A DNA stretch of 43,553 nt. Source: a virus. Under the pieces are notes generated by a model. It was not told the DNA's origin and searched no databases. It saw only the letters and a program-made list of their open reading frames with translations. Every line of letters begins with the position of its first letter. Within the stretch, counting starts at the first letter, position 1. Location of the stretch: the IMG/VR virus record IMGVR_UViG_3300045988_180307. One strand, given 5' to 3'. Shown here piece by piece: positions 55 to 43,553 of this stretch. Both the position numbers and the translations under genes were made by a program.

Positions 55-97
55 AATAATTGAATTCATTAACGGTATACATTTTCGAACTCGAAAA

Positions 98-1279: not shown

Positions 1280-1290
1280 AAAGAAGGTTA

Positions 1291-1568: not shown

Positions 1569-1618
1569 TTGTTAAACCAGCCCCCTTAAACAAGGGGACA
1601 CAATCCTATATAATAAAT

Positions 1619-2041: not shown

Positions 2042-2061
2042 TGGTCTGTTTTATTGACATG

Positions 2062-2095
2062 ATCCCCGTAGTTGAACCGCTACGGGGATTTTCTA
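2062..2095. terminator. Bidirectional intrinsic terminator between convergent genes
   Basis: ATCCCCGTAG-ttgaaccg-CTACGGGGAT is a perfect 10-bp stem, followed by TTTTCTATT on the + strand. It lies between the stop at 2041 (+) and the stop at 2098 (-). Confidence 0.7.
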
Positions 2096-2097
2096 TT

Positions 2098-3867: not shown

Positions 3868-6800
3868 AACTTATTGCGTGATTTATTGTTATTTAAACGA
3901 TTGTATTCTTTTTGCGCCTGATTAATGCCATGTTTGCCTGTAACATATGTTTCAGCCACCAACGGTTCTTGAAGGCGAGACTTAACTTTTTTCATTGTCT
4001 CAGCACATTCAACCACCAGACGATGCAGTTCCAAATCCACCCCGGTTCCACCTTCGGATACTGGCACCACAGCAGACGGAGCAACCACAGCCGACACATC
4101 GCTAGCAGTCAGGCTGCCCACTGTATTGGTACGCTGCGCATGATCAATCAAATTAAGTACGGGACGAATAGCCGGGTTTGCCACCGCAAAACGGTTGGCA
4201 ACAAATTCATTGGAATGTACAATACCCTGAGGGCGATCCCATTCACCAGGACCTGTGAAGCCTCCAGTATAGAAATTACCAATCATCCCCTTAACTGCTG
4301 CAAATGCAACTTTAATGGCCGCAATCTGGGCAGCCGCTTTCGCTATACCGATAAAAGACAAAGGAGCAGTAGCCGCTGCATTTTTTGCTGTGATTTCAAC
4401 AGCTGCGATTTCAATAACTTTCTCCAAGGCATCAACCGCCATTAGCAGGGTCTCACGGAGAAAACTCTTCATTGTCAGTTCTCCATTAGCAATCATTTCA
4501 CCTAAAGTCTGCCCATAATCCTCAGCTATCCCCTTAGCCATATCCGTATATTTTTGGGCCAAGGCCCTTTCTTTATCCTGAGCCTCTTTTCTTTTTTGGT
4601 ATTCCCGTTCATCCTCCTTCAACCTGTTAGCGTTAATTTGCTTTTGGAAGTCTGCTTTTTGTTGTTCTGTTAATTGATAATTGGCCAGCATATCGCTATA
4701 ATAACCGTATTCCAAATCAGACAAAACCTGAAGATAATCTTCTTCAGATGTCAGGTTTTGATAATGATAACGGGCAGCTGCTTCAACATCTAACTGATAT
4801 CGCTTTTCTCTGGCTGTCAAAGCACGTTGCTGTGCCTCTTTATACTCTTTATCATCTTCTTGCCTGCAACGCTCTTTGAATTTAATTTGTGCATCTAAAA
4901 TCTTTTGATTGATTTTTTCAATCTCATCTGGCTCCATACCAGCAATATCTAGCTGTCTGTTCAAATGCTGCATCTCTAAATCTTCAACCAACCGGGCATA
5001 CTCTTCTTGCGTCATCAAGTCACTGTCAATATACAATTGCTTGAGATGTGTCAATTCAGACAAATATTCTTTTTCCTCCTTAACCAACGCATCTTTTTTC
5101 GCTTTTGACCTCTCCCCTTCTGTTAAAGTGCCACCTCCATTGTTTTTACCATCGTTTTTTACTACATCGGGCTGAATGTCGCTAGCTGCAATTTCAGCAT
5201 TAACATCTTTAATGGCCTGATTTAACTGATCAAGACGAGCCTGAGTCTTATTCAGTTCTTGATTGGCTATCGTGAGCTGGCTACGTGCTTGCTGAGTAGA
5301 CGCATCTGTAGCTTTAGCCAACGCTCTTGTACCTTGTGTGCCCAAACTAGTAGCCCGAGCCGATGCCATAAACTGTGCCGCATTAAAATTGGCATTGGCT
5401 CGCTTCACCTCTTCTTGTTGTTTTCTCTCCAGCTTCTCCGTCTTGCGTTGTTCCCGATACAGTCCTGCCAACTCTTCTCTAGCCGCCTCCAGTTTGATTT
5501 GTTTCTCCAATTGCACCAAATAGTCTTTGATGGCACCCGTATTGTCATTCATCAACTTGCCCTCTTCATTTAGCATACCGTTGTAACCCGGAACGATTTG
5601 TTTCAATTCATCAATACAGCGACGGCGTTCATTATAGGAGAAATTCTGATTATGAATCACATTTGTCAGCAATCTAATTTTTGACTCCTGCTCGCCATAT
5701 TTATCATTCAAATCATTACTAATGCGCAACATTGATTTCTGACTTTCTGTAACCCTGTTTTGCTCTCTTTTTAAATCAATCAGCCTACCGATTAAAGCTG
5801 CTACCCCTACCGCTAAAAAAGCATAAGGATTTGCCTTAACAAATTTACCTAGAGAAAGCAGCGATGCAACGATTTTTTCATTCCAAACCACCTGTAATTT
5901 CGACCAGGCAACATCCGCTTTTTTATAAGCGATCAAAGCAAACAATGTCACACAGGTACTTGCTAACGCACCCTTGTATTTAACCAACCAATCAATCAAT
6001 GCCGGAGCCATACTAAGTAATTTAGTAGTCCATCCCGTCAACATATTGAGAGAGGGATTTAATTTTTCCATTAATTCAATGCCTGTCTCTCTTATTTTAT
6101 TCTTCAGCTGAGCCAAACGCGCCTCGTTGGTTTCAGAGTTAATTGCCGCCTGTTCCATGGCCACGTTAGTACCGGTCACCGCCTTGGTATAATATTCAAC
6201 TTTGTCCGCACCGTCTATCAAGGTCTGTGCTACCGTGTAGGTTTCTGCACCAAAACGCTTCACGATTTCTTCTGTAGATAGTTTTTGTAAATTCTTCAGA
6301 GCCGTTTGCAAGCCCACTATCTTGGGATTTGTCTCATCTGCTCCCGTCTGTAGGCGAAGGAAAAACATCTTCAGTCCAGTACCAGCCACCTCGTTCACAA
6401 TTCCTTTCTCTGCTAGAGTCTCGATGCTACCTACCAATTGCTCAATGGGAACATTAGCCGTAGAAGCGGAAACACCAGCTTTAGTGACGGCTGCCGTAAT
6501 GCTCTGTACAGCTGCGGAACCGTATTTGGACCCCGCAGCCATCACATTGGCATAGTCGGCCGCCTTCTCGGATGATGCCCCATATTGGTTCATTGATAAC
6601 GTAACCGCATCAACCGCTTCTTTTAAATCCATCTTGGCAGCCTTGGACAAACGCATCGCCTCAATGGTCACGGCATTCAACGCCTCTTTATTACCCAACA
6701 AATCCGGTTTGGCAGACCCTACCAACATATATGCCTCAAGAATCTCTTTACTGGACTGAGTAACCCGAAGTCCAGACTTGTGCATCGAAGTAGACAATAT

Positions 6801-7406
6801 CTCGGCCTGTCGGGCAAGCCACTGAATGGATGCATCATCCAACCCGGTAAGAGCCTTCAGATTGGCAGCCGACGCCTCTTTATCATCACGGTCTTTGCGC
6901 ATTTTGTTCAACGTCATGGATATACCGGTAATGGCAGCTATACCGGATGCCGCCAACGCCCCCCATTTGGCAAATCCATTATTAAACCGGGTCAACCACC
7001 CCTCAGATTCTTTAATTTCATCATTTACTTTACGAATCTCCGCATTGACCAACTTGAGTTGTGCCTGGTACTTCTTCCACTCTTCAGAACCTCGGGCTAT
7101 GTGACCGGAATTCAACTTAGCATTGATATCTTTCAACAGCCGTCGAAGTTCTTTTGGAGTGGCCAAACCAATATTGTTCATAGCCGCATCAATATTCCGA
7201 GCGTTATCCCTCATAGCGCGCAATGCTATATTGGTCTCTTTCAGTTCTTTTTGTAACTGCTTGACTTTTTTGGTATCACCCGCATTTTGGGCTTCAACAA
7301 TTCTGGCTTTTAAAGAGAGCGCATGTTGTTCCATCAATTGCATCTCTTTTCTAGCCTGCTCCCCATTCACCTGGAGTTCAACGGTCGCTTTTTCATGTAT
7401 AGCCAT
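3864..7406 (-). CDS. Tail tape measure protein
   Basis: 1180 aa. Long K/E/Q-rich coiled-coil-like stretches and hydrophobic segments (WGALAASGIAAITGISM, AFLAVGVAALIGRLI). The segment DYANVMAAGSKYGSAAVQSITAAVTKAGVSASTANVPIEQLVGSIETLAEKGIVNEVAGTGLKMFFLRL resembles the TP901-type tape-measure core. Confidence 0.8.
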   Translation of the reverse strand: MAIHEKATVELQVNGEQARKEMQLMEQHALSLKARIVEAQNAGDTKKVKQLQKELKETNIALRAMRDNARNIDAAMNNIGLATPKELRRLLKDINAKLNSGHIARGSEEWKKYQAQLKLVNAEIRKVNDEIKESEGWLTRFNNGFAKWGALAASGIAAITGISMTLNKMRKDRDDKEASAANLKALTGLDDASIQWLARQAEILSTSMHKSGLRVTQSSKEILEAYMLVGSAKPDLLGNKEALNAVTIEAMRLSKAAKMDLKEAVDAVTLSMNQYGASSEKAADYANVMAAGSKYGSAAVQSITAAVTKAGVSASTANVPIEQLVGSIETLAEKGIVNEVAGTGLKMFFLRLQTGADETNPKIVGLQTALKNLQKLSTEEIVKRFGAETYTVAQTLIDGADKVEYYTKAVTGTNVAMEQAAINSETNEARLAQLKNKIRETGIELMEKLNPSLNMLTGWTTKLLSMAPALIDWLVKYKGALASTCVTLFALIAYKKADVAWSKLQVVWNEKIVASLLSLGKFVKANPYAFLAVGVAALIGRLIDLKREQNRVTESQKSMLRISNDLNDKYGEQESKIRLLTNVIHNQNFSYNERRRCIDELKQIVPGYNGMLNEEGKLMNDNTGAIKDYLVQLEKQIKLEAAREELAGLYREQRKTEKLERKQQEEVKRANANFNAAQFMASARATSLGTQGTRALAKATDASTQQARSQLTIANQELNKTQARLDQLNQAIKDVNAEIAASDIQPDVVKNDGKNNGGGTLTEGERSKAKKDALVKEEKEYLSELTHLKQLYIDSDLMTQEEYARLVEDLEMQHLNRQLDIAGMEPDEIEKINQKILDAQIKFKERCRQEDDKEYKEAQQRALTAREKRYQLDVEAAARYHYQNLTSEEDYLQVLSDLEYGYYSDMLANYQLTEQQKADFQKQINANRLKEDEREYQKRKEAQDKERALAQKYTDMAKGIAEDYGQTLGEMIANGELTMKSFLRETLLMAVDALEKVIEIAAVEITAKNAAATAPLSFIGIAKAAAQIAAIKVAFAAVKGMIGNFYTGGFTGPGEWDRPQGIVHSNEFVANRFAVANPAIRPVLNLIDHAQRTNTVGSLTASDVSAVVAPSAVVPVSEGGTGVDLELHRLVVECAETMKKVKSRLQEPLVAETYVTGKHGINQAQKEYNRLNNNKSRNKL

Positions 7407-7508
7407 CTTTTTTTATTTCAAAAATAAGGTTATAAAAACAGTCGGTAAAAGACAAGAAAAACCCGACTCATCACGAGCCGGGGCAGTCCAATTTATAAAT
7501 TTAAAGTC

Positions 7509-8027
7509 TTATGATGAAGATTGTCTGTTGCGCCAATGTTTTACTATCAGCACAACAACAAGCAAAACGGTTACACAAACACAGGCAAAACCGATTTGTT
7601 CAGGCAGCGTGGATTCTTTTTTCTCCTTTACCCCTTCAGTCTTGGTTTTCTCATAGATATCGGAAGTGGTTTCCTTGTCAGCTTTCACCTCCGTACTGTC
7701 TTTGGTTGCAGTTTCCTTCTTTTCATTCTTATTGAAATCAGCTTCCACATGACCGTCCGCCAATAACGGAGGTTTCCCAGTCAGACTGTCGGGCGGTTTT
7801 CGGGTATCATAGATACGGAAATCAATTACATAGCTGCCATTAGTGGTTATCAGCTTTCTTAAAGAAGTAGCAGATCCATGTACGATATTGACCGATTCAC
7901 TGGCACTGTCCTTCCTGATTACTTCTGTATCGGATTTGACAGCCTTATGCGAGCTGCCACATGATCCGAACAGCAGGAACAGACACATGAAAGGAGCCAG
8001 CAATATATGCCGGCTTACCCAGTTCAT
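7509..8027 (-). CDS. Lipoprotein with a C-terminal transmembrane anchor (unimolecular-spanin-like lysis protein)
   Basis: From the internal start it reads MNWVSRHILLAPFMCLFLLFGSC|GSS, a signal peptide plus lipobox Cys. The C-terminus GFACVCVTVLLVVVLIVKHWRNR is a TM helix. It is the last gene of the holin-endolysin cassette. The ORF track extends to 8054. Confidence 0.6.
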   Translation of the reverse strand: MNWVSRHILLAPFMCLFLLFGSCGSSHKAVKSDTEVIRKDSASESVNIVHGSATSLRKLITTNGSYVIDFRIYDTRKPPDSLTGKPPLLADGHVEADFNKNEKKETATKDSTEVKADKETTSDIYEKTKTEGVKEKKESTLPEQIGFACVCVTVLLVVVLIVKHWRNRQSSS

Positions 8028-8031
8028 AACT

Positions 8032-8556
8032 CTAACCAACATAAGAGATGTCATTTATGCGGTTCATCCACCCTCTCTTAAATTTATTATTGGTCGGACG
8101 CTGAAGACAAATATCCTCAATAAAGTCAAACCGGGCAATCTTAATCATGTCGAACAACTCACGCGGATTCTTGGCATTTACTGCGGCAATGGTCTTGGAA
8201 CCTACAATGCCATCCACCGTAACACCAAGCAAGCGTTGAGGTATCTTTATTCCGTGCGCACCGGATGCCCACACCCAGTCCACAAGAATATTTGCCACAG
8301 ACTGATCCTGTATCAAATCAGCTTTCCATCTATCCCAATAATGTGGTTTGAGTACACGATTAACAACATCTTCACGGGTAAGTATGTGTAAATCATCCAC
8401 ATCTATATCACCGTCACCATCCTTATCATAGCCGCACGATTTCCATGTGCCGATAGTCACACCCATATTGGTAGCCCCTCCCAAATCATCAGGATCATCA
8501 ATAAAACCGCCTTCCCACTTTAGGATAAACGGTGCAAGTTTATTCACATCAGCCAT
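8032..8556 (-). CDS. Endolysin, glycoside hydrolase family 108-like with a C-terminal peptidoglycan-binding region
   Basis: 174 aa. [28 protein letters not shown] is the GH108 (DUF847) N-terminal signature. Its start overlaps the holin stop. Confidence 0.85.
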
Positions 8557-8797
8557 TTTTATTTTCCTCTTTATCTTTTAATTTATCCACTAAATGATTA
8601 AACTTGGTTGTTACATAAACTCCGATACCAAATATGCCTCCGGCATACATCAAGCATTGAGCAAAAAACCACAATACGGATTCATGTATCTGACCTGTCG
8701 GTTCCACAATGAACCCCGCCACAGACAAGCCAACACCAGCCACTAACATACTCACTGCTGTATAAATCTGCACTTCCTCTTTTGTTTCTTTCTTCAT
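8549..8797 (-). CDS. Holin-like small membrane protein (two TM helices)
   Basis: 82 aa. Two hydrophobic helices ([42 protein letters not shown]) and a charged C-terminal tail. Immediately upstream of the endolysin. Confidence 0.7.
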
Positions 8798-8902
8798 GAT
8801 ATTTTTTATGCCGCTTTATAAAAACAGGCACAAACCAACCAATAAATAACAATATAAAAAAAGACAAGAAAAATTGATTATAAAGCTTTCTGCTAAACCC
8901 AA

Positions 8903-8950
8903 TAGTAGAAATCTAGTAGAAATATTAACATACAAACACTTATTTCTACT
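8903..8950. repeat. TAGTAGAAAT motif: two direct copies plus one inverted copy in a divergent intergenic region
   Basis: TAGTAGAAAT at 8903-8912 and 8914-8923. The inverted copy ATTTCTACT is at 8942-8950. Located between the holin start (8797, -) and the fibre gene start (9046, +). Confidence 0.5.
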
Positions 8951-9006
8951 GAATATCTACCACTATTCAATAAAATGATATTATCAATTGATATTCAACT
9001 TATCAT

Positions 9007-9152
9007 CCAAGTTCCGGCGGAACTTAGGCTAAAACAGGAGATATTATGGTAAAAATGCATAAACTGACGAAGGGCGGACAAACCATTTACCCGGCTACCA
9101 TCTATGATGCGGTGGTCAATCCAAAGACGCGTAAGAGCTTGACTACGGAAAT
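9007..9152 (+). repeat. Inverted repeat, left arm (5' UTR + RBS + first ~35 codons of tail-fibre gene A)
   Basis: Reverse-complement match to 14077-14223. The outer 62 nt are identical apart from one extra A in a homopolymer. The inner 84 nt have 11 mismatches by hand alignment. Contains the palindrome GTTCCG-G-CGGAAC. Confidence 0.9.
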
Positions 9153-11814
9153 ATCTGATTTAGACGTTGGATTAACTTCTATTAAAAACAAGACAGAAGG
9201 TATTTATAATACGATTGACCAGATAACAGATAAAACAATAGCTAAAATTGTAGGGTCCGATTTTAACGAAACGTATGTAACATCATGGGGACAAGGTGGC
9301 ATATCCACTACGACTGGCGCTATTGAAGAGGGAGGCAAAACAAGAATACATTCAGATCTTATAAATACAGGTGTTGACATTTCAATAGAAAGTGGATATA
9401 GATATTATATAATTTATTACAATGAAAATGGGTCTTTTGCTGCTAAAGATGGCAATTGGAAAACTGATAAAAGCACAACATCAACATCTTATAAGAAATT
9501 TCGTATCATGGTTTCTTTGATTAAAGAAGCCACTATAGATATAGAATCAGGGAAACGGGTTACTATAAGTAAATTATATCAAAATGAGGCGTTATGCCCA
9601 GATATCAAAAAGTTCAATAATACGGTTGAACAGATAACTGATGAAACAAAACAAATTGCACAATCATACAATGATTTGAGTAATGAAATGGAACGCAACC
9701 TAACCGAGATTAAGGGTGGCAATTATATGGAAAAACAGGATCTATTGTGCGTACAAGGGAGTATCAATTCGCAAAGCGGTATACTACAACCAGGTGGGAC
9801 CAACAGGGTCTATACCAAGATAATTGATACAGGAACTGATATCATTATCAAGCCTGGTTATAGAATATATGTCATGTTTTATAATGACCCTGCCGGTGAG
9901 TCTTTCAATTCAAAAGATGGTAATTGGAATACTGTATATACTACCATTCCCACAAAAACCCAATATTGCAGATTGATGATCGCTAAAATTGATGATACGG
10001 ACTTGTCCCCATCGGATGCATCTGAGAATGTTCTGGTAGGGGATTTGACCAGTTATCCTTCAATGTTTATGCCATTAATGAATTTGAGCACTAATCCTGC
10101 CGGATCATTTATGGCAAAAGATGATTTATTGACTTTATTTTTTTACTTAAGGGATAATCAAAGAAAAAAATACGTAACATCATTATCTAAGACCTATTAT
10201 GTAAGTACAGTCAATGGCTTGGATACCAATGATGGTTTGTCTGACTCAACTCCGTTGAAGACTTTGAATAAAGCCGATGAACTGATGACCGATGGGGACA
10301 CGGTCCTTATTGAACGAGGAAGTATATTTAATACAGAGGTACAAGTCTTGTCTAAAGAAGGAATCAGAGTGGATTGTTATGGCGACATGTCCAAGGATAA
10401 ACCTTTGTTTTTGAATTTGCAGACAATACCGACCGTATCTATATCAGATATTAGCTCTGTTAATGACATTGAGTCTTTGGATAAATTATACAAACTGCGC
10501 GGCTATAGTAACATTTATGTTCTAAAGCATCACTATGGTTCGGGCAGCAAGGCCAGATTTGTTTGTCAGGTATTTTTAGACGGGAAAAGAAATGGATGGT
10601 GGCTTGACGCACAGAAAAAGTCCAGTTCGGATGCCATGGACTGGCTAGAAAACAATCCGGGTAGCTCCTATTGGTTCAGCGGATACGATTCAGAGTCATG
10701 GGGGGAGGGGGATTATTATATATATTTATCAACAACCGATATTGCAGGAAAAATAGTGGAGATAACTCATGAAGTGACAGAGATTGGGAAAAAAGGACAA
10801 AAACTGCAAATCACCCAATATGCTTCTGATATTCGTAATATCGTTTTTCGAGGTGGTGACTCTACAGACGGTACTGTTATTCCTAATGGATTTTATGAGG
10901 GGGTAGAAAGTTTGGATTTTGGTAGACATGGTTTTCTGTTTAACAGGTCTGCGGCTCCCCATACTCACATGATGCTGAATTGCAGAGCTGTATCAAGAAG
11001 TGGAGCAAATGGAGAGTATTATCATCACATGTATTATAATTACCATTATTATGGAGAACTATTGGCATTTATCGGTTGTGAGGCCATAGGCAGACATGAA
11101 TATCTTGGTACTGCATTTGCCGGGCATGGCACAAGTTCGGTAACAGGGATGCCTTTCGATGCCATGTATCTGTATGACTGCTACTGCGAGGGTGTTAATG
11201 TGGTTGTCGGTGCCAATGGAGCGCAAATGAATTATTTAAGGAATATAAGAGTTAAGGAGGTTGGACATATTTGCATACGTACACAGGGATTACATGCAGT
11301 AGGTATTTTCGGAACATTGTATCCCCCGCAAAATAATTGGAATGAACCTGTATTCGCTGAACCAATCGGTTATAATGTCTTAAAAAATATACGTATAAGG
11401 AGTCGAACAGGAATGGGGACATTACTTATTTATAAAGACTCGGCGAACAAAGATGCAGGAAAGGTGGTTTTTGAAAACGCTACAATTATAGTGGAAAGTG
11501 AAGGGAAACAGGCTCCTGTATATAAATTTGGGGCGACTCTGTTTAGATTGGCTGACAATATATCTGTTGTTTTCAATAGGTCATTCGTTGCTGTAGATAA
11601 TGGGCTGGAAACCACATCCTCCATGTTGTGGGATAACGAAACGACACCAGACATAGAGTTTATAGATTCAGAGCTATACGGTATCAAGGATAATCGTTTG
11701 CACAGCGATGATAAAAATTCATATTTCTATGAGAGTATGGATGGGATTTTTTCAAAAATCAACAATCTAACAAAATTAAGTTATGTTGAAGATAACTGTA
11801 TATTCAATTTGTAA
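9046..11814 (+). CDS. Tail fibre / tailspike A: shared N-terminal anchor, two tandem ~95-aa modules, C-terminal beta-helix (pectate-lyase-like) depolymerase-type domain
   Basis: 922 aa. The N-terminus MVKMHKLTKGGQTIYPATIYDAVVNPKTRKSLTTE is shared with the 734-aa ORF. Internal repeats are at aa ~82-175 and ~237-330. From aa 384, YYVSTVNGLDTNDGLSDSTPLKTLNKADELMTDGDTVLIERGSIF is a typical entry into a right-handed beta-helix glycanase domain. Confidence 0.75.
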   Translation: MVKMHKLTKGGQTIYPATIYDAVVNPKTRKSLTTEISDLDVGLTSIKNKTEGIYNTIDQITDKTIAKIVGSDFNETYVTSWGQGGISTTTGAIEEGGKTRIHSDLINTGVDISIESGYRYYIIYYNENGSFAAKDGNWKTDKSTTSTSYKKFRIMVSLIKEATIDIESGKRVTISKLYQNEALCPDIKKFNNTVEQITDETKQIAQSYNDLSNEMERNLTEIKGGNYMEKQDLLCVQGSINSQSGILQPGGTNRVYTKIIDTGTDIIIKPGYRIYVMFYNDPAGESFNSKDGNWNTVYTTIPTKTQYCRLMIAKIDDTDLSPSDASENVLVGDLTSYPSMFMPLMNLSTNPAGSFMAKDDLLTLFFYLRDNQRKKYVTSLSKTYYVSTVNGLDTNDGLSDSTPLKTLNKADELMTDGDTVLIERGSIFNTEVQVLSKEGIRVDCYGDMSKDKPLFLNLQTIPTVSISDISSVNDIESLDKLYKLRGYSNIYVLKHHYGSGSKARFVCQVFLDGKRNGWWLDAQKKSSSDAMDWLENNPGSSYWFSGYDSESWGEGDYYIYLSTTDIAGKIVEITHEVTEIGKKGQKLQITQYASDIRNIVFRGGDSTDGTVIPNGFYEGVESLDFGRHGFLFNRSAAPHTHMMLNCRAVSRSGANGEYYHHMYYNYHYYGELLAFIGCEAIGRHEYLGTAFAGHGTSSVTGMPFDAMYLYDCYCEGVNVVVGANGAQMNYLRNIRVKEVGHICIRTQGLHAVGIFGTLYPPQNNWNEPVFAEPIGYNVLKNIRIRSRTGMGTLLIYKDSANKDAGKVVFENATIIVESEGKQAPVYKFGATLFRLADNISVVFNRSFVAVDNGLETTSSMLWDNETTPDIEFIDSELYGIKDNRLHSDDKNSYFYESMDGIFSKINNLTKLSYVEDNCIFNL

Positions 11815-11863
11815 AGTATGACTCAGAATATTTGAAATTTCATAAAGCATATACTATGATGTA

Positions 11864-11890
11864 AGGGCTGATCTTGGTGTGGTCAGCCCT
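11864..11890. terminator. Hairpin between the convergent fibre genes (weak bidirectional terminator candidate)
   Basis: AGGGCTGA-11 nt-TCAGCCCT, an 8-bp stem with no clear U-tract. Confidence 0.3.
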
Positions 11891-11978
11891 CTACCCCTAG
11901 AACCATTCTGCATTTGGGTGTACTTCTACGGACAGACGGAACATTATTTTAGTGATTAACTTTTTAATTATCATAATT

Positions 11979-14183
11979 TTACATTTTTGTATCTTCGATG
12001 TAAGGATTGGTTAGATCCATAAGAACATATTGAATTAAAGCATCAATAACAACGTTAGCTATCTTCATGCCTCCTGCGGAATTTGGATGAACCTGGTCTT
12101 GCAGATACGTTGTGATATTAAGCGTTGATATTCCACTTAATGCATTTACATCAATTACGGGGACGGAATATATTGCACATACTTCTCTTATCACACTCCC
12201 GTAATCTTGTATCGTTAATCCTATATTATTTTTATAAGGATAATCAGCATTATTATGAGAGTTGTAAAAATTATGTGGTATGCAAGCGAATATCTTGGCA
12301 TCCGGCAATCTTTTGATAATCTTTCTCAACATTAGCCCATAGGCGTATTTTAAATGAGTTTCGTCCTGATCGTCAAGCTCCCCGATTTGGGCATTTGCCG
12401 TAATATCATTAGCGGAGGCATATATGACTAATACATCCGTATCGGTCGGAATAGTATTTATTCGCCCGTCACCACACATATTATCCTGTATAGTGATAGT
12501 TCCTTCTTCGGGATGAGCGGCATTATAGTAGCCATTTTCGTCCACTTTCTTGGTTTGTGGGGAAATGGATGTAACCTTGGAGCCTCCGATACCTCGGCAA
12601 TAATGTGTTGAGAATTGAAGATATTTCCACACATACTTCTGCCACGAGATCAGTTCTACGATCGAGTCTCCAAATGAACAAAACTTCTTCCCTTTATACG
12701 CCATATTGATTATTTCATCTCTATCTAACTTTACATTTCTCACATTTTGCGGATTGCAAGGGTAATAATTCAACGAGACAAACGGGGAGTCCACACTGTT
12801 GAAATTAAAAATTATATATTCCCAATTTTTTTCACCTGTCATCACCTCCCTAAAGGTTTTTACTTGACTGCCCCTATACCCAATCCACGTACCATCTGCT
12901 GCATACACGGCGACTGAAAATGCATTGGTAAATACAGATGTTATGTTGTCAACGACTCTGATCAATCGTGTAGTATTATAAGCTTCGTTTGACTGTAACG
13001 ATCCATTTACATTGTTATAACCATCAATAAGATTATCATTTGTTATCAGATTTTTATCTAAATAAGTTTCAGGAAGCTGTGTTATACCGAATTCAAGCGG
13101 AATAAAATTCTCATTGAATGATAGATAATAAAAATCTCTTGCGTTATTATTCCAAGCCCTGCAATATGATGCTTCTGATGGTATTTCTCTTTTTGAGATA
13201 TTCTTTCCCGTTGAAGCACCCATATTAACCGTGCCAAGCAGCGTGCCCTTATCTCTATAAAAATAAACCGAATATGCATTGGTATAGATATACTCTTCTC
13301 CTGCCGGTATATCAATTCTTTCTATAACAATCCCATTTCCATTTACAATATTTCCGACTCCGTCTATTGTTTTATTGGCGAGCAAAAGTTCATCATATAC
13401 CTTGTTGATTGACACATCCTGCAACATGTGTCGTATTGTCATCAAGTCGTTTTTAACCTCTTCAAGAGAGTCAATGGTTAATACTTCGATCCAATTCTTG
13501 TCATTTATCCAATTTGAATTCTCTACACTATCAGATTTATATATTTCAATTGTAAACCTGTCTTCGTTTTGATACGATAAGATAAATCCTTTTCTCCGGT
13601 TAATACTGCTTATCGACAACCTCGTATTAGATTTGTTCGAATTATACACGACAGAATCGTACATGTAAGAATCAAGCGGTATATAATTACTCGTTTCAGA
13701 ATTGTACAGATATACCCTATATCTGTTTGTCAAATCTCTATAAGTGAAAACCAATCCGATTTTTTTATTGTAAGTATTCGGCAGAGCATTCCTGGCAGCA
13801 TCGGGCGTGTTGTAATTATTGCCGGTTATTGCCGTGATGTTGATAAAGGGAAATTTGGTCGATGGCAGCAATGGGCACCAGAATAAATCATCGCTCCAAT
13901 ATTGATCATCCATAGATGTTCCCATATACATTTCAACAGTGAGTTCCCCAGTTGCTCCATTCCTATAACTTAAAATCTTTCCTGTACTTCTATTTTCTTT
14001 TGGAATTCCAAGTCTGGTTTTTGAAAAATCTGTATCAAATTGTGTTGAAATGGCACTTCCTTTATTCAACCCCGACATTTCTGTAGCCAGACTCTTACGC
14101 GTTTTGGAATTAACCACCGCATCATAGATAGTAGCCGGGTAAATGGTTTGTCCGCCTTTGGTCAGTTTATGCATTTTTACCAT
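11979..14183 (-). CDS. Tail fibre B: shared N-terminal anchor, duplicated internal modules, C-terminal SGNH/GDSL esterase domain
   Basis: 734 aa. Same first ~35 aa as fibre A. SGNH block I is FCSFGDSIVE (GDS codons at 12663-12671), a mid block is VLVIYASANDI, and block V is DQVHPNSAGG (about 12079-12099). Repeated modules ILSY.N...E.Y...W and TNA(Y/F)SV..Y...G. Confidence 0.8.
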   Translation of the reverse strand: MVKMHKLTKGGQTIYPATIYDAVVNSKTRKSLATEMSGLNKGSAISTQFDTDFSKTRLGIPKENRSTGKILSYRNGATGELTVEMYMGTSMDDQYWSDDLFWCPLLPSTKFPFINITAITGNNYNTPDAARNALPNTYNKKIGLVFTYRDLTNRYRVYLYNSETSNYIPLDSYMYDSVVYNSNKSNTRLSISSINRRKGFILSYQNEDRFTIEIYKSDSVENSNWINDKNWIEVLTIDSLEEVKNDLMTIRHMLQDVSINKVYDELLLANKTIDGVGNIVNGNGIVIERIDIPAGEEYIYTNAYSVYFYRDKGTLLGTVNMGASTGKNISKREIPSEASYCRAWNNNARDFYYLSFNENFIPLEFGITQLPETYLDKNLITNDNLIDGYNNVNGSLQSNEAYNTTRLIRVVDNITSVFTNAFSVAVYAADGTWIGYRGSQVKTFREVMTGEKNWEYIIFNFNSVDSPFVSLNYYPCNPQNVRNVKLDRDEIINMAYKGKKFCSFGDSIVELISWQKYVWKYLQFSTHYCRGIGGSKVTSISPQTKKVDENGYYNAAHPEEGTITIQDNMCGDGRINTIPTDTDVLVIYASANDITANAQIGELDDQDETHLKYAYGLMLRKIIKRLPDAKIFACIPHNFYNSHNNADYPYKNNIGLTIQDYGSVIREVCAIYSVPVIDVNALSGISTLNITTYLQDQVHPNSAGGMKIANVVIDALIQYVLMDLTNPYIEDTKM

Positions 14184-14223
14184 AATATCTCCTGTTTTTA
14201 GCCTAAGTTCCGCCGGAACTTGG
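14077..14223 (-). repeat. Inverted repeat, right arm (5' UTR + RBS + first ~35 codons of tail-fibre gene B)
   Basis: Reverse complement of 9007-9152 (see left arm). Begins 28 nt downstream of the stop codon of gene 14251-14682. Confidence 0.9.
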
Positions 14224-14250
14224 GCTGTTGTTATTTTATGTAATTATTTA

Positions 14251-14682
14251 TTAACTATTAAAATCACTCAGTACATCATCATACTCCTTATCTGACAGAG
14301 ATACGCTCTGCACCGCATTGTATGCGGCATAATCCGGATAGGGCATGATCTCCGCTGTGCTCTCATCCGTCTTCCCGGTAGTCAGCACAATCCCTGTATC
14401 TTCAATAGATACAAGGTTGCAGATGCCATCTCTAAAGTCAGAATCAGAAATGAAGTATTCCCGTTTGACCTTCAGCAAACCAGGGGAGAAGCCGGGGTTG
14501 TCAAAAGCGACAAGCAGACTGCCATCTTCCATACGGCTGCACCCCACATACTCTTGCCCATCAAAGGAGGCTATAAACTTTCCCTTAAACGGATTGAAGT
14601 AAGTAAACCGGAAGGGAGTTGATATGTCTCCATTCAGGTTCTTCTCTATAATTTTAAAATCAGACTGGTAATTAATTTTCAT
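14251..14682 (-). CDS. Hypothetical virion/tail protein
   Basis: 143 aa, tightly packed in the minus-strand virion operon just upstream of fibre B. No family recognised. Confidence 0.6.
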   Translation of the reverse strand: MKINYQSDFKIIEKNLNGDISTPFRFTYFNPFKGKFIASFDGQEYVGCSRMEDGSLLVAFDNPGFSPGLLKVKREYFISDSDFRDGICNLVSIEDTGIVLTTGKTDESTAEIMPYPDYAAYNAVQSVSLSDKEYDDVLSDFNS

Positions 14683-14684
14683 AA

Positions 14685-15023
14685 CTATAATATTGATGTT
14701 ACATCGTCTATCTCCTCGGCTGTCAGGATACCGGAAAGATCAACACTTCCACCGCCTCCTGTCGTGCCTGTATCACTCCAAACGCCTCTCGTCTTACATT
14801 GATACAGAGGACCCGGTATGGTATCCCCCACAACTGCCCAGTCACCCACAACAGGAGATGGGACAGCAGCCTGCAATGCTTCTACTGTTGAAAACAATCC
14901 CTTGTTGCGGACACTGTTCTGCTTGACCTTATCAATCTCGGTAGAAGTCTTACTAAAATTGTAGTTAAGCCGATCTGCCGCCTCACTCCAAGTACCTGTT
15001 TTATTAATACTATTAAGTTCCAT
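14685..15023 (-). CDS. Small tail-fibre-associated protein
   Basis: 112 aa. KGLFSTVEALQAAVPSPVVGDWAVVGDTIPGPLYQC...GVWSDTG is a motif I associate with phage fibre or hyaluronidase N-terminal regions. Also has a Gly-rich tract. Confidence 0.6.
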   Translation of the reverse strand: MELNSINKTGTWSEAADRLNYNFSKTSTEIDKVKQNSVRNKGLFSTVEALQAAVPSPVVGDWAVVGDTIPGPLYQCKTRGVWSDTGTTGGGGSVDLSGILTAEEIDDVTSIL

Positions 15024-15024
15024 A

Positions 15025-17328
15025 TCACTTTCTTACCTTTAACACTCCATTTGTCACTATTCCTTCAAGTGTTTCATATTCCACATATACCTGCCCGGAG
15101 CTGACGTTATCTTTAGACGGCCAATTACTGCATTCAATATTTGCCACATATTTAGACACAGCCCCTCCGTCATATACCGGTTTCATCCCAACCAACAGAG
15201 TTTCGCCTTTAGAGCCATAGAAAGAAACGTTATTGGGAGTAAGAATAATATCCGTATTTTCCACATGATTCTGTATTCTGATACGTTCCGGATATACAGT
15301 CGTTTCTTGTATCAATTGGTCCCCTACATATTTCCGTAGAATCAAATCACCATACTCCCATCCGTCTGATGATGTGTCGAACCTTAATATCAAGGTGGCA
15401 TGTCCTTCAGTCGTGTACATTTCAAGAGTATTTTTATCCGGATCAATGACAATGCGTTTCCCGTCAACAGATGTTTCTACTTTTCCGCGGAAAAATCCGC
15501 CCAAGGCTTCAACCACACCTCTGAACTTACCACCCAAGGCATAAATATAGCCACGAAGGAACGTATCGCCACCATGAGTGGCAACAAAGTTCGCCATATT
15601 CGCCCATTCTTCATCCGTAGGCTGGTAATTTGGATCATTACGAAACCTCATTACAGTCAGAATCGCCTGTTCAAGTTTTCCTCCCGCCCAAAACACCACA
15701 TCATCATCGTCATTGTATATGCCGCTAACTCCGGCTGTGACCTTCTGTAACTTGCCATCCTTGTAATTACCCAGTTGGATCATATTGGCCAATATCAAAC
15801 CGCCAAGGATATCCACAGATCCATCCTTAATAGCACTGGCGATATAATTAATCGCCTGAAAACCGGCTGTTGCCTTGTCATTATCAAGAATGGACGGTTT
15901 CCAGTCTGTGGCGATGGTTCCACGCTCTAACTGAAGGTCACAAACGGTTGCGGTACCACTGACAAGAAATATACCACTGCCATTGAAGGTGATCTTATGG
16001 GTATATCTCTGATAAGAGGATGTGAGAGGTTGAGAAACACTGAAAGAGCCGCACAAAACAGCCACAGACGTACCCTTTGCTTTATAACTGATAACATAAC
16101 TTTCTCCTTTAATCAATGACACGGATTGGGACAAACTACCGATTGCAGCAGAGTACCCAGAGCCGGCAGCACTATCTGCGGATACGGTAGCCACACCCGT
16201 CCAATACTTTAATTGCTTGCTGAAAAGTTCGGTGTCCGCCAACAATTGAGTATCAGAGGACAATATTTCACTTTCATAATCTCCAGTAAACCCGGAGTTA
16301 CGCAACAGATTGACACTTCCGACAGCCGCATTGTCTATCGCATCCTGAGCCTTTTGGGCCAGATCGGCAGCCGCCTGTATCTCATCCGGAAGACCTTCCA
16401 TATTACGCCATCCGGTGGAACCTTGTTCGATATGAAACATACCCTTGATATCAACACCGCCTTTCTGGCTATAACGGATGTAAGTGCTCTCATCCTTGGC
16501 ACCGATATAGGCATCACCATACACATTGATATAAGCGTGTCCGGTGGACTTGTCAAAGCCCAGCCCGATGACTTCTTTCCCGGCAAGAGAGAAAGAGTTG
16601 ATACCTTGATAAAAAATAATGGAAGGCGAAGTTTCATTAACAGACGAAAGGATTATAGCTGCCTGACGGGTGATATCCGTCAAATGCCCAAGCCCGATGA
16701 TATCATCACCGGCAGCCGGAACATCACTGTCCTTGTCAGCATTGGTTTTGCTCAAGTCAATATAGTCAGATCCTACACCTGTCACCTCACGCCAATAGTA
16801 GCGGTTGGATACATTGTGGGATGTCCCTTCTTTAATGTTAAATTCTTGGGCTAATGCTAATGTACCTACTGTAAATTCGTTATTGATTGTCACTCCATCA
16901 ACTTCTGACAAAAAGAAACAACGGTAGCTCTCATCAAGTTCCTCCACCCTGACACACTTCATACCGGCCGGAGATATGATCTGTTCACCACCTACATGCG
17001 TCTTCTTCTTTACTTCAAGCTCGTCAAAGACAGCCTTAATCTTCACATACAAGCGGTCAACAACGGCTTGTGTCGTACCATCTTCCAATACAGTCCAACC
17101 GCTACCGTTTTTACCAATCAAAAAACCCTTCAGGAACGTTATCAGCTCATTGGCGATATCTTCTTTATCTTTACGAAGAAAATATTTTTCAAAATCAGTT
17201 ATATCAGCACCTGCATCAATCATGGCCAACAACAAAGAACCGACACGCAATGCCGTATTCGCTCCGGCATTACGTTCATCCCTTATCTGCTCCGCCAATT
17301 TTTTTAATGTGTCTTTAATATCCGCCAT
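15025..17328 (-). CDS. Large tail fibre / baseplate-associated structural protein
   Basis: 767 aa. Size and position next to the fibre genes. N-terminal helical segment (ANTALRVGSLLLAMIDAG) followed by beta-rich sequence. No enzymatic motif seen. Confidence 0.6.
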   Translation of the reverse strand: MADIKDTLKKLAEQIRDERNAGANTALRVGSLLLAMIDAGADITDFEKYFLRKDKEDIANELITFLKGFLIGKNGSGWTVLEDGTTQAVVDRLYVKIKAVFDELEVKKKTHVGGEQIISPAGMKCVRVEELDESYRCFFLSEVDGVTINNEFTVGTLALAQEFNIKEGTSHNVSNRYYWREVTGVGSDYIDLSKTNADKDSDVPAAGDDIIGLGHLTDITRQAAIILSSVNETSPSIIFYQGINSFSLAGKEVIGLGFDKSTGHAYINVYGDAYIGAKDESTYIRYSQKGGVDIKGMFHIEQGSTGWRNMEGLPDEIQAAADLAQKAQDAIDNAAVGSVNLLRNSGFTGDYESEILSSDTQLLADTELFSKQLKYWTGVATVSADSAAGSGYSAAIGSLSQSVSLIKGESYVISYKAKGTSVAVLCGSFSVSQPLTSSYQRYTHKITFNGSGIFLVSGTATVCDLQLERGTIATDWKPSILDNDKATAGFQAINYIASAIKDGSVDILGGLILANMIQLGNYKDGKLQKVTAGVSGIYNDDDDVVFWAGGKLEQAILTVMRFRNDPNYQPTDEEWANMANFVATHGGDTFLRGYIYALGGKFRGVVEALGGFFRGKVETSVDGKRIVIDPDKNTLEMYTTEGHATLILRFDTSSDGWEYGDLILRKYVGDQLIQETTVYPERIRIQNHVENTDIILTPNNVSFYGSKGETLLVGMKPVYDGGAVSKYVANIECSNWPSKDNVSSGQVYVEYETLEGIVTNGVLKVRK

Positions 17329-17378
17329 TTACTTTTTTATTCCAAAGTAACAACAAAGCCAAAAGCCGTAAAAAGACA

Positions 17379-17954
17379 TCATTTCTTTTGATGATGCCCC
17401 CATAAATGCGAACGCATGGAGGTACTGCGCTTGTGATTCGCCTCTTCAATCTTCTCCGCAAGCAGACCACAGAACTCCTCACCATACATGTATGCCATCT
17501 GCTCTTTCAAGACCATGACCGAAGCAAAATAGGCACGTGAGAACCATTCACGGGGTTTGCGAGGTTCACCTGAGGTAATCTTGCCGGATTTTTGTCTGTG
17601 CACATAATTCTTGCCTCTCAAATCCGGATTCAAAAACTTCAAATCACCCTTGTTATGCCCTCTATGCCCGTCATTATACAACTGGCCGTCGATCTCATAT
17701 CCCCGCCCCGTACCACAATCCTGATAAATGCCATATTCCATAAACTTATGCTGTATCACCGTCAGTTCACTGCTGCCCATTGTCACATTCTCCGTAATAT
17801 CATTGTGCAGTAACACCGTATCAACCACGTGCAGTCTCATGATCTTCTCCCTCCAGATAGTGACCATCATCTCGGCCCACGCCTTCTTATACTTTGCCCG
17901 ATCTTCAGCCGTGGACTTCGGCCTGTTCTCATTCCTCCCACTCATCACTGTCAT
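17379..17954 (-). CDS. Hypothetical virion protein
   Basis: 191-aa ORF that overlaps its upstream neighbour, consistent with operon packing. Confidence 0.55.
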   Translation of the reverse strand: MTVMSGRNENRPKSTAEDRAKYKKAWAEMMVTIWREKIMRLHVVDTVLLHNDITENVTMGSSELTVIQHKFMEYGIYQDCGTGRGYEIDGQLYNDGHRGHNKGDLKFLNPDLRGKNYVHRQKSGKITSGEPRKPREWFSRAYFASVMVLKEQMAYMYGEEFCGLLAEKIEEANHKRSTSMRSHLWGHHQKK

Positions 17955-18468
17955 AAATTAGAGATACCGGTTCGGAAACATCAATCATAAAATACAGGCC
18001 TGTGCATCCGGAAATAAAGTATTCACCCAGTTCGCGTGAATACACATTATCCGTATTCAGGTACACCAGTTCGTTATCCAGATTCTCACGGTCAACCAGC
18101 ATCCTGCTGTGCACCTGGCGGAACAGCTGCCGGCACACCTCCAGTGCCGCTTGGCGTTCCGCCATATCACTGATACGGTACCGCATCATGAGAAACACGG
18201 TAAAAGTACGCTTTTTAAAATATCCTCCGGAACGCTTCTCGGTCACTCCGTCATTCGTATCATCTACCGCGAAAAAAGCGGATTCGCGCCGAAGGTTCTG
18301 AAGAACCTCTTCAAGCGAGTTTATGCCGGAACAGACACACGGATAAAAAGCGTGAGCCTTGGCCAATTTGTTTTTTTTGCACATTCCTTTAAAATAGGAC
18401 AGCGCATCGAATAAATTATTTGCATCCATATCTCTGTTGTAACTCCTGTGCCTCGCGGGCCTTCTCAT
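17929..18468 (-). CDS. Hypothetical virion protein
   Basis: 179-aa ORF. The alternative start MDANNLF at 18429 would reduce the overlap with the upstream gene. Confidence 0.55.
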   Translation of the reverse strand: MRRPARHRSYNRDMDANNLFDALSYFKGMCKKNKLAKAHAFYPCVCSGINSLEEVLQNLRRESAFFAVDDTNDGVTEKRSGGYFKKRTFTVFLMMRYRISDMAERQAALEVCRQLFRQVHSRMLVDRENLDNELVYLNTDNVYSRELGEYFISGCTGLYFMIDVSEPVSLIYDSDEWEE

Positions 18469-19207
18469 TCAGTTCGGTCAACGCCCGCCAGCAATCCATC
18501 TGCAATACTTCTCTCTCCTTTGTGATATCCCCGCCTGTCAATGCCCGAATCTCCGCATTGACGAGTTCAAGCATATTAAAGGCTTCACCCTCCAGTTGTT
18601 CCGGAGGACGGAACAGATAGGGAAAGCATTTTGTAAAATGATTCTTAACCGATGCAATCCACAAAAACACGGACAGCAGTTCTTCTTCCGAAGGATTGAA
18701 CCGGCGGGGATGCCGCCCTTTGCGATCCACGTACAACAAAATTGCCATGGAACGCAGAAGAGCGTTATCGCGCGTGTGTAAAAAGCCCTGATAATAATTC
18801 TCAATACTGACATACTCCTTAAACGGAACATCATGCAACCGGGCATCCACCGACCGGAACCTGCCGATCCGCCACAGGCAGAAAGGCATATCACCCGGAC
18901 GCTCGATAAAGTCCAGCGTGTGCAGGAAACACTGTACCTGCCACGAATGAACAAAGAACCGAACCTTTTTCCATCCGTTGCGAACAGAACAAACCCACCC
19001 GTCCTCCTGTCTGCGCAATACAGTGATCCCCAGCAGCCGGACAAAGATGTATGTCTTTGCCGTGACCGGATCAAAACGGGTCATAATATAACACACATAG
19101 CGCAACTGCCATTGCTCCAGCTTGTGCCATGCATCCGGCAGATGGAAGTTGATCAACCTATCCCCAAAAGTAGCAGGTATCTTCTTTTTCATTTTTATAG
19201 TATTCAA
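18416..19207 (-). CDS. Hypothetical protein (virion morphogenesis region)
   Basis: 263-aa ORF in an operon context. No family recognised. Confidence 0.55.
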   Translation of the reverse strand: MNTIKMKKKIPATFGDRLINFHLPDAWHKLEQWQLRYVCYIMTRFDPVTAKTYIFVRLLGITVLRRQEDGWVCSVRNGWKKVRFFVHSWQVQCFLHTLDFIERPGDMPFCLWRIGRFRSVDARLHDVPFKEYVSIENYYQGFLHTRDNALLRSMAILLYVDRKGRHPRRFNPSEEELLSVFLWIASVKNHFTKCFPYLFRPPEQLEGEAFNMLELVNAEIRALTGGDITKEREVLQMDCWRALTELNEKAREAQELQQRYGCK

Positions 19208-19970
19208 AATGTTTTACCTTATACGCATCGCTATCCTTATACGCCGGAAAATCGTCCGGACACCCCTCCAGCAAGTTAACCACATTCGCCAGTTCCACAC
19301 GGAATGCCGGCAACTGCTTGTTGATCCAAAACCCTATCGCCCTACGGAGCGCACAAACCAACGGTATCTCGGCTTCAGCCAGTGACTTATGCCGGATTTG
19401 TTCAAGCAAATGATCAAACAAAACTGCGGATATCTCGCGCCGGATATATTCTTCAGCCTCGCTGATTTGCGGACGAAGTTCGAGCAGATCAGTACGGATA
19501 GCTGCCGGTCGGCCTGCAAAATCACGCACATGGGCACCGGTATAGTAAAGGGAACTGATCACCAACCGGGCACAAACTGAGGAAGACCAAGCGTCATCAC
19601 CAGTCATGCCCTCAATAATACAGTCCAGCGCATAATCCGCCTCACGCTGTATCTGCACGCGCAACGATTCAACCCGGTCACGTGATGCCGGAGATATATT
19701 CTGGTTATTGACAATACCGAACCCCGTATCCGTCAGTATCAGATCCAGCCCCGGGATCGCCTGATAAAACGCATCAAGACAGATATAACGGCACACATCT
19801 TCTTTAACGGGCAGCGTATCCACATCCGTATCACGCCCCAGCACCGTGCCAAAGAGCTTATGTTCAGCCTGTTCAAACCGATCTTGTATCGCATCAAACA
19901 CATACACGTTTGCCGAAGCGGCTGCAAAAACGACCTTCTCAAAAGTCTGTTTATCAATTATCATCTTCAT
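19158..19970 (-). CDS. Hypothetical protein following the portal-like gene (possible head completion / connector, by position only)
   Basis: 270-aa ORF whose start overlaps the end of the portal-like ORF. Confidence 0.55.
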   Translation of the reverse strand: MKMIIDKQTFEKVVFAAASANVYVFDAIQDRFEQAEHKLFGTVLGRDTDVDTLPVKEDVCRYICLDAFYQAIPGLDLILTDTGFGIVNNQNISPASRDRVESLRVQIQREADYALDCIIEGMTGDDAWSSSVCARLVISSLYYTGAHVRDFAGRPAAIRTDLLELRPQISEAEEYIRREISAVLFDHLLEQIRHKSLAEAEIPLVCALRRAIGFWINKQLPAFRVELANVVNLLEGCPDDFPAYKDSDAYKVKHFEYYKNEKEDTCYFWG

Positions 19971-43539: not shown

Positions 43540-43553
43540 ACTTTTAAAACAGT
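43520..43553. repeat. 34-bp direct repeat, right copy (candidate attR core / terminal overlap)
   Basis: Identical to 1-34. Confidence 0.9.

Follow-up and report, generated by a model that had tools for sequence, protein, structure and literature searches.

Phages Mu and P1 each carry an invertible DNA segment, termed G and C, respectively, in which short inverted sites bound two alternative tail-fibre specificities that lie in opposite orientations, as is also the case for e14 (Pin). Inversion of the segment by Gin in Mu or by Cin in P1 decides which fibre stands behind a fixed late operon, and a population of lysogens gives rise to alternative host ranges. Serine invertases of this kind act on sites of the 26-bp gix/hix type, which feature a 2-bp central crossover and are accompanied by an enhancer bound by Fis. 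Here we describe a segment that follows the same logic at positions 9007-14223 of the IMG/VR virus record IMGVR_UViG_3300045988_180307, a stretch of 43,553 nucleotides (nt) that we refer to in its full length as the window. Our reading is that the segment is an invertible cassette of two fibre genes, that expression of these genes is switched with its orientation, and that it is flipped at a site within the 5' untranslated region (UTR) by a sequence-specific enzyme. We give this reading as a whole a probability of roughly 65%.

In function the locus matches Mu G and P1 C, and its architecture places it outside the serine-invertase family. The gene for a serine invertase adjoins the segment in Mu and P1, whereas Pfam scans of 49 open reading frames (ORFs) of the window found no such gene here. 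In those phages the segment excludes the constant 5' part of the fibre gene, to which the crossover joins alternative C-termini, whereas here whole genes lie inside the segment and the crossover falls within the 5' UTR. Their hosts are enterobacteria rather than Bacteroidales, and, unlike theirs, the fibres described here bear enzymatic domains and are accompanied by no separate assembly-chaperone gene.

Other systems resemble the locus in part. A BV01-like phage of Phocaeicola diversifies its tail fibre through DNA inversion, which has been proposed to counter phase-variable capsules (preprint PMC13596623, 2026). Its shufflon is a multi-cassette region of 1.7 kb at the 3' end of one fibre gene, which uses a 10-bp motif (TGGGAGAACT) and an adjacent recombinase to generate six C-terminal isoforms (PMC13596623). 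The window likewise belongs to a temperate phage of gut Bacteroidaceae that varies its fibre by inversion, but it inverts two whole genes between two sites, each site is a different 22-28-nt sequence within a 5' UTR, and no recombinase is adjacent. The shufflons of R64 (Rci) and of Bifidobacterium prophages (Rin) also alter the adhesin or receptor-binding specificity of a mobile element (PMC6109161). However, they rely on several short repeats that yield many permutations, on C-terminal exchange and on an adjacent tyrosine recombinase, none of which was found here. Among the loci examined, none contained more than two copies of the repeat arm or of the N-terminal motif described below; with two sites at most and no adjacent recombinase, the locus is not a shufflon. 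Phages of the K1-5 / SP6 type, which encode two receptor-binding proteins (RBPs), are generally known to combine unrelated enzymatic bodies with a short conserved N-terminal anchor that serves as a hot spot of exchange, as we find here, but their genes are co-oriented and co-expressed without inversion, whereas those of the window are convergent and invertible. Finally, the invertible regions of Bacteroides fragilis (Mpi, Tsr0667 and Tsr19) have short inverted repeats and a recombinase encoded elsewhere in the cell, with one enzyme acting on many sites; these regions are mostly promoters or the 5' ends of SusC/SusD genes in the chromosome, whereas here the inverted DNA consists of phage fibre genes (PMC4747536). 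The genome closest to the window among those deposited is that of Bacteroides phage BS-TP3, which is temperate, infects B. salyersiae and has been cultured; its genome is finished, and the paper reporting it does not mention inversion. We found no description of this system in the literature, which was searched for the core sequence, for BS-TP3 and for inversion of fibre genes in Bacteroides phages.

The segment comprises 5217 bp and contains two convergent fibre genes, 164 nt apart, which encode proteins of 922 and 734 amino acids (aa) and which lie within the segment with their leaders, start codons and entire ORFs (Table 1). A repeat search of the window revealed two adjoining pairs of inverted repeats, one of 28 nt that is 100% complementary (9007-9034 and 14196-14223) and one of 125 nt at 90% (9031-9155 and 14074-14198). 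When the two arms were aligned, the 28-mer was followed by a single difference in a run of A (A4 on the left, A5 on the right) and then by 33 identical nt that include AGGAG and the ATG, which is the longest identical run between the arms. Mismatches are scattered past this block, and similarity is lost after approximately codon 37-42. An earlier note on this DNA, written from the sequence alone, had described inverted copies at 9007-9152 and 14077-14223, which the repeat search and the alignment confirm, and had counted 11 mismatches within the inner 84 nt, a figure that is approximately right, the repeat search giving 90% over 125 nt. The two ORFs are also as the note described them, and 67 nt separate the stop codon of the 143-aa gene (14251-14682, minus strand) of the virion operon from the start of the gene for the 734-aa protein.

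As the note had further stated, the two products begin alike and then diverge completely: in a protein comparison they share 86% identity over residues 1-42 and are unrelated beyond, such that both genes encode a common N-terminal anchor of about 40 aa. The 734-aa protein matched phrog_5240 (tail fiber protein) and an SGNH domain. A short stretch of the 922-aa protein, residues 378-456, resembles a portion of lacto-N-biosidase / fibronectin type III chains. This protein also contains two copies of a domain of about 150 aa, at residues ~85-140 and 247-300, an internal duplication with the pattern G.I....G.....G..R.......TG.DI.I..GYR.Y...YN......SKDGNW.T.

Each fibre gene is preceded by the 28-nt site CCAAGTTCCGGCGGAACTTAGGCTAAAA, the 22-nt centre of which is palindromic and which we call the core. 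The core is a palindrome of odd length, with arms of 7-8 bp around a centre of 1-3 nt, and within the leader it folds as a 7-bp hairpin with a 3-nt loop. The palindrome that the earlier note had pointed out is real and longer than given there (AAGTTCCG-G-CGGAACTT). It occurs twice in the window, both times in an arm, with 0.06 occurrences expected by chance.

Table 1. Features of the invertible segment and its surroundings in the window, followed by cassette pairs found in both orientations
Feature or comparison	Position (nt) or length	Strand or orientation	Remarks
Left arm, lysis side	9007-9155	+	28-nt core 9007-9034, leader with AGGAG 9035-9045, start codon and about 36 anchor codons
Right arm, tail-operon side	14074-14223	-	Same parts as left arm; A5 for A4 after the core
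Core palindrome, left copy	9009-9025		AAGTTCCG-G-CGGAACTT
Core palindrome, right copy	14205-14221		Same palindrome as left copy
Fibre gene A, 922 aa	9046-11814	+	Shared 42-aa N-terminus; non-operon position here, facing the tail operon
Fibre gene B, 734 aa	11979-14183	-	C-terminal SGNH/GDSL esterase domain; directly behind the tail operon here
G+C-rich hairpin between the convergent fibre genes	11861-11894		-20.2 kcal/mol, z -2.2 (+ strand)
Virion-operon genes for tail-tip proteins of 767, 112 and 143 aa	14251-17328	-	Predicted to be read into whichever fibre gene adjoins
Lysis cassette	7509-8797	-	82-aa holin-like gene, GH108 endolysin, 181-aa protein; transcribed away from the left arm
Conserved 150-nt lysis-side flank (LY1)	8857-9006	+	GTAGAAAT...ATTTCTAC hairpin 8905-8960; TCTACC motif 45 nt before the repeat
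Window vs L343	9007-14223	Inverted	Exact reverse complement, 5217/5217 nt, no gap
BS-TP3 vs L094+L093	6294 nt	Inverted	99.968%; flanks 99.67% / 98.65%
L019 vs L072	5701 nt	Inverted	99.947%
L053+L071 vs L215	4800 nt	Inverted	100%
L039 vs contig 136426	about 5.8 kb	Inverted	100% over the compared parts

Inversion of 9007-14223 is real as far as public assemblies can show, and we hold it to be all but certain. Nucleotide alignment of the window with L343, a human gut metagenome contig of 51,850 nt from a k127 assembly, showed an inverted block bounded by 9007 and 14223, i.e., by the outer edges of the arms (Table 1), and collinear flanks on both sides (1-9152 at 99.88% and 14074-21251 at 99.83%). 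We read 24 public contigs that encode the exact 734-aa protein. Ten of them show the order of the window, in which the 767-112-143 genes are followed by the 734-aa gene, the 922-aa gene facing it and the lysis genes. The other 14 are flipped, such that the lysis genes (holin) are followed by the 734-aa gene, the 922-aa gene facing it and then 143-112-767, which places fibre gene A behind the operon. The exact 922-aa protein is encoded in the flipped order by 13 contigs and in the window order by approximately 8, in addition to its occurrence in other backbones. In total, five cassette pairs were found in both orientations in phages that are otherwise near-identical, with junctions that are exact and reciprocal, and the SGNH fibre gene of BS-TP3 lies on the opposite side of the segment relative to the window. 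The flip that the earlier note had predicted, which swaps the fibre gene adjoining the virion operon, is therefore present in public data for the prophage of the window itself, and the search of related prophages that the note had suggested yielded four further cassette pairs in both orientations.

We considered whether the two orientations are artefacts of assembly across the repeat. The repeat does disturb short-read assembly, as approximately 30 of its copies lie at sequence ends that fall within it, some of which are only the ends of fetched stretches. However, the longest run shared by the arms is 33 nt, which is far below the k of 127 or 141 used for the flipped contigs and which indicates that the flip in L343 is not an artefact. 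Furthermore, BS-TP3 is a cultured phage with a finished genome, and exact, reciprocal flipped junctions recur in five different cassette pairs, so that we leave an artefact next to no chance. One contig, L320, in which both sides of the segment carry lysis-side flanks, was excluded as a probable assembly chimera.

The two states occur in near-equal numbers across samples (14 vs 10 contigs for the 734-aa protein and 13 vs ~8 for the 922-aa protein), and they probably coexist within single samples. Contig 136426 opens with 27 nt of the operon flank and the 28-nt core, together 55 nt, and a complete operon flank adjoins the segment at its opposite end. Among 185,579 representative genomes, the sole match was a SPAdes contig of 5745 nt in a Phocaeicola metagenome-assembled genome (MAG), which consists of exactly the segment plus 23 nt of each flank; these 23 nt and the 54 nt shared by the arms add up to 77. 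Assuming assembly k values of 55 and 77, the ends of both contigs fit a branching assembly graph in which all four junctions are present in the reads. Contigs that end 54-55 nt into the repeat were left out as evidence of heterogeneity, because the identical run there corresponds to k=55 and a collapsed repeat explains them.

The position of the crossover can be mapped in three of the pairs. In the window/L343, BS-TP3 and L039 pairs, the arms of one genome differ directly after the 28-nt core, either by A4 vs A5 or by CAGGAG vs ATAAGA or TAGAAT, and these differences stay with the gene body in the flipped partner. Because they travel with the gene body, the crossover must have occurred within CCAAGTTCCGGCGGAACTTAGGCTAAAA, an interval of at most 28 nt in the 5' UTR, and no bases were gained or lost. 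The pair formed by the window and L343 used this 28-nt block for the crossover and not the adjacent, longer block of 33 identical nt.

The same boundary emerged from a larger set of arms. Stretches carrying the 28-mer or its 22-mer centre numbered 113 in IMG/VR and 102 in metagenomes, and their arms were sorted by the type of outer flank and of inner gene body. For 164 non-redundant arms, the normalised mutual information between leader plus codons and flank type was 0.01-0.05, and that between leader plus codons and gene body was 0.3-0.85, rising inwards, which indicates that linkage to the flank ends at the core. The earlier note had placed the crossover in the non-coding, palindromic outer part of the repeat, and both the three mappable crossovers and the loss of flank linkage point to the 28-nt core. 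It had also counted an AGGAG ribosome-binding site as part of the conserved repeat, which does not extend to the family, in which the leader after the core has at least five alleles, some of them without AGGAG.

The core is highly conserved. In 58 loci retrieved through the neighbouring 143-aa protein, and hence chosen independently of the core, its 22-nt centre CAAGTTCCGGCGGAACTTAGGC was identical in all 58, where the 143-aa gene is 83-99% identical in DNA. The sole variation within the core concerns the central triplet, which is GGC or CCC and which is the same in both cores of 24 of the 27 loci with two copies (18 GGC/GGC and 6 CCC/CCC). More than 190 copies of the core revealed no compensatory changes in the stem. 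A core-like match with a GCA centre in L326 lies inside a coding region, is at chance level and was set aside. Taken together, the narrow crossover interval and the invariant core favour a sequence-specific enzyme acting on the core over general homologous recombination.

Homologous recombination could nevertheless account for the flips if RecA or a phage annealing protein acted on the arms, which are ~150 bp long and 90% identical. The core would then be used only as one of the longest identical stretches and would be conserved for another reason, e.g., as a leader hairpin, a regulator site or an exchange linker. Consistent with such a process, the core persists in relatives with a single fibre gene, where inversion is impossible; mosaic leader alleles and N-terminal haplotypes on the same body show that exchange also occurs in the coding part of the arm; the same cassette pair is present in at least three backbones; and the annotation note of a BS-TP3 gene lists a PHROG match to the NinB/Orf family of homologous recombination. 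However, the window pair used the 28-nt block over the adjacent 33-nt identical block, and all three mappable events fall within at most 28 nt, which is near or below the usual minimum for efficient exchange by RecA, a minimum that was established in Escherichia coli. Moreover, a core that is invariant in sequence and lacks compensatory stem changes fits recognition by a protein better than a simple hairpin. We therefore regard recombination through the arms as unlikely, though by no means negligible.

Which enzyme would act on the core is constrained by the gene content of the window. The earlier note had reported that no invertase of the Gin/Hin/Cin type is encoded and that a tyrosine integrase is the only recombinase, and the Pfam scans of the 49 ORFs uphold both statements: no resolvase-type (serine) invertase was found, and the integrase at 98-1279, which lies 7.7 kb from the segment, was the only recombinase. 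The catalyst is not a phage-encoded invertase of the Gin/Hin type. The note had also listed the integrase among the possible drivers of the flip, and inversion as a second activity of this enzyme would draw on the only recognisable recombinase of the window and on a family that does catalyse inversions in Bacteroides (PMC4747536). However, an identical core and flips are found in phages whose integrases share no detectable similarity. Flips occur on both integrase backgrounds, i.e., in the window phage and in BS-TP3, and the window integrase showed no significant similarity to gp18 or gp48 of BS-TP3 (BLASTP E >= 0.15). The second tyrosine recombinase of BS-TP3, gp48, has no homologue in the window. 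In addition, the ~74-nt attachment (att) repeat does not resemble the core, as no match was found at <=7 mismatches. On these grounds, namely unrelated integrases, a gp48 without counterpart and an att repeat unlike the core, we rejected the integrase as the invertase; the catalyst is very probably another enzyme, and we see only a slim chance for this one. A recombinase hidden within the module that the phages share was also considered and rejected, since the shared proteins are those of 767, 112 and 143 aa, the fibre and the 181-aa protein, none of which reads as a recombinase from its sequence.

This leaves three possibilities: an enzyme of the host that acts in trans, one of an unrecognised type, and recombination on very short homology. 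We consider a recombinase of the Bacteroidales host, provided in trans, to be the leading candidate. Master invertases of B. fragilis flip many distant sites in trans (PMC4747536). A trans-acting invertase of that type would explain how a phage module flips without an enzyme of its own. The consensus of the Mpi repeat, ARACGTWCGT, is not present in the core.

By virtue of its gene order, the segment is predicted to act as a switch. Recombination between the two inverted sites flips it precisely and reciprocally, so that the gene directly downstream of the tail operon encodes the 734-aa SGNH-esterase fibre in one orientation and the 922-aa fibre in the other. The fibre gene on the operon side would be transcribed together with the tail genes and would supply the fibres of the virion, and the other gene, which faces it across the hairpin between them, would be silent or expressed differently. 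A population of lysogens could then release virions with either glycan-targeting fibre, according to the Mu G / P1 C logic. It is very probable that the phage is able to change the fibre that it produces, and we propose that only the fibre on the operon side is expressed and that host range is phase-variable as a result. The hairpin at 11861-11894 is a possible two-way terminator, and the terminator scan of the window did not list it. In the long-read assembly L348 (5788-6045), neither the core nor the conserved flank accompanies the 922-aa gene, and a G+C-rich hairpin related to that at 11861-11894 lies immediately before its CAGGAG leader; this copy looks locked and may be silent.

A different outcome would follow if both fibres were expressed, with the gene on the lysis side transcribed from a promoter of its own in the 150-nt flank. 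Inversion would be real without being a switch: virions would carry both fibres on the shared anchor, and the flip would be neutral or would shift only dosage or timing. The flank, LY1, offers several features that fit such a promoter. It is 97.5-99.7% identical across relatives with diverged backbones, whose operon flank falls to 78%, and it holds three GTAGAAAT motifs and a hairpin of -15.8 kcal/mol (z -5.9). Three unrelated types of lysis-side flank, i.e., LY1 and two others, have in common a GTAGAA/TTCTACC hairpin, the end of which is in each case exactly 45 nt from the arm, and a ATTSATWTTCAAY (or similar) box at -20 to -8, which amounts to a promoter-like architecture. Both fibre genes are intact in every genome examined, and phages with two tail spikes on one adaptor are established (K1-5 / SP6 type). 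In contrast, no promoter consensus of the Bacteroides type was found in the flank by eye, and the GTAGAAAT dyad, which is unique to LY1 within the window, stands before no other late gene there. The non-operon gene in L348 has a G+C-rich hairpin before its leader, has no such flank and looks silent. Furthermore, a ratio of orientations close to 50:50 and crossovers placed precisely at a site without variation would amount to oddly elaborate machinery for a neutral event. Expression of both fibres in every cell thus strikes us as improbable, albeit a serious contender.

LY1 is a candidate for any of three roles, namely promoter, insulator and accessory site in recombination. Its GTAGAAAT motif was rejected as an arm site of the integrase and as a general late-promoter motif, as it occurs only in the lysis-side flank. 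A sigma-70 promoter scan returned 31 sites, with 26 expected, and is uninformative for Bacteroides. An Rfam scan of 8500-14800 returned only one sub-threshold microRNA match, which overlaps the flank hairpin. On the operon side, at 14199-14227 of the plus strand, flank bases lengthen the core hairpin to 13 pairs, and it is followed by TTGTTATTTT; this structure scores as an intrinsic terminator and could keep antisense transcripts out of the tail operon.

Several points weigh against an enzyme-driven switch as we read it. Site-specific catalysis is deduced only from the mapping of crossovers and from conservation. The agreement of partner sites in their core centres is confounded with lineage, and the view that one clone harbours both orientations is argued from assembly graphs rather than from reads. 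If the conserved lysis-side flank, with its stable hairpin and its box at a fixed distance, is an independent promoter, both fibres may be made in every cell, and the flip would change the context of a gene rather than turn it on or off. Finally, approximately 60 relatives, among them L042, L091, L126 and L218-L295, have no second arm and only one fibre gene, located behind the 143-aa gene, and nevertheless keep an identical 22-nt core. Either the core probably has a role beyond inversion, e.g., as an RNA or DNA hairpin in the leader, or the single-fibre phages are a reservoir for the exchange of cassettes.

Exchange of cassettes is indeed apparent from the distribution of the module. At least 25 types of fibre body were distinguished, the common ones of which are found behind both kinds of flank. 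The neighbouring 143-aa protein has 242 relatives in IMG/VR, more than 100 stretches of human-gut metagenomes contain the core, and the exact 922-aa protein is present in 130 data blocks. The window phage and BS-TP3 (stretches L001 and L297) share only the tail-tip proteins of 767, 112 and 143 aa (14088-17328 region), the fibres, the 150-nt flank and the 181-aa protein. At 1e-8, BLASTP found no match between the two for capsid, replication, integrase or endolysin proteins. The identical 922/734 cassette pair is also present in at least two further backbones (L348 and L349). That little is shared outside the module and that the same cassette recurs in other backbones indicates that the fibre module moves between backbones as a unit. 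The core and the conserved N-terminus are the junctions at which at least 25 fibre bodies are exchanged among otherwise unrelated backbones. We tentatively propose, at rather less than even odds, that this is a portable host-range module without a recombinase of its own, in which a host invertase or an enzyme of unrecognised type frequently flips the cassette at a 22-nt site that also serves to trade fibre bodies.

Some invertible segments hold an additional gene between the fibre genes, which is cargo that flips together with the segment. In BS-TP3 this gene is gp12 (L001, 11946-12806), which encodes a DUF2971 protein of 286 aa, and ORFs of 286-288 aa occupy the place of gp12 in L305 (5330-6190) and L320 (8030-8896), the match being one of position only.

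Gut Bacteroides escape phages by switching their capsules and surface proteins through DNA inversion. If our reading is correct, the switching of RBPs by inversion would be the phage-side counterpart of this behaviour, and, if a host enzyme flips the cassette, the phage would borrow the phase-variation machinery of its host to keep pace with phase-variable capsules. The module is common in phages of human-gut Bacteroidaceae and would help to explain the long coexistence of phage and host as well as the broad or shifting host ranges of temperate gut phages. Prediction of host range from a phage genome would need to consider the orientation of the segment. A defined site of 22-28 nt combined with whole-gene cassettes also offers a plug-in design for engineering an exchange of fibres in phages of Bacteroides. 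The enzyme that flips the segment is a well-defined target for identification, and BS-TP3 on B. salyersiae BG8 provides a cultured system for this purpose.

The genes that surround the segment fit a tail module next to a lysis cassette. In the virion operon, the 767-aa protein matched tail-protein PHROGs, and the proteins of 112 and 143 aa, which had no Pfam or PHROG matches, look structural; all three genes are common to BS-TP3 at 74-91% aa identity. On the lysis side, the 181-aa protein (7509-8054, minus strand) follows the endolysin and has a lipoprotein-type signal, LLFGSC, near its N-terminus and a C-terminal membrane helix, a layout that points to a single-component spanin associated with the lysis cassette. 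Among the loci examined, this protein was present only in those with two fibre genes (24/42 vs 0/60 single-fibre loci). Between the lysis cassette and the integrase end, the region 2098-7406 (minus strand) encodes a phage minor-tail (tape-measure-like) protein of 1180 aa and a protein of 589 aa, which is an unusual location for tail genes; BS-TP3 has neither gene.

The window covers an entire prophage. At its right end (43480-43553) lies a direct repeat of ~74 nt (GTCAGGCCTCCGCAACTA...AAAGAGGATAAATGATTGAATCACAATCTTTTATCCTCTTTACTTTTAAAACAGT), the last 34 nt of this repeat open the window (1-34), and the left copy is found in L343 (915-990) after a host TetR gene and before the integrase; the repeats are probably attL and attR. 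Weak to moderate Pfam matches were obtained for four further loci on the minus strand. These encode an RNase_T-type exonuclease with a BRCT domain (24596-25582), an N6 DNA methylase (26097-26870), a protein with a PLD-like nuclease domain (30840-31340) and a 195-aa protein with a LuxR/GerE-type helix-turn-helix (42017-42604), which could be a transcription regulator of the phage.

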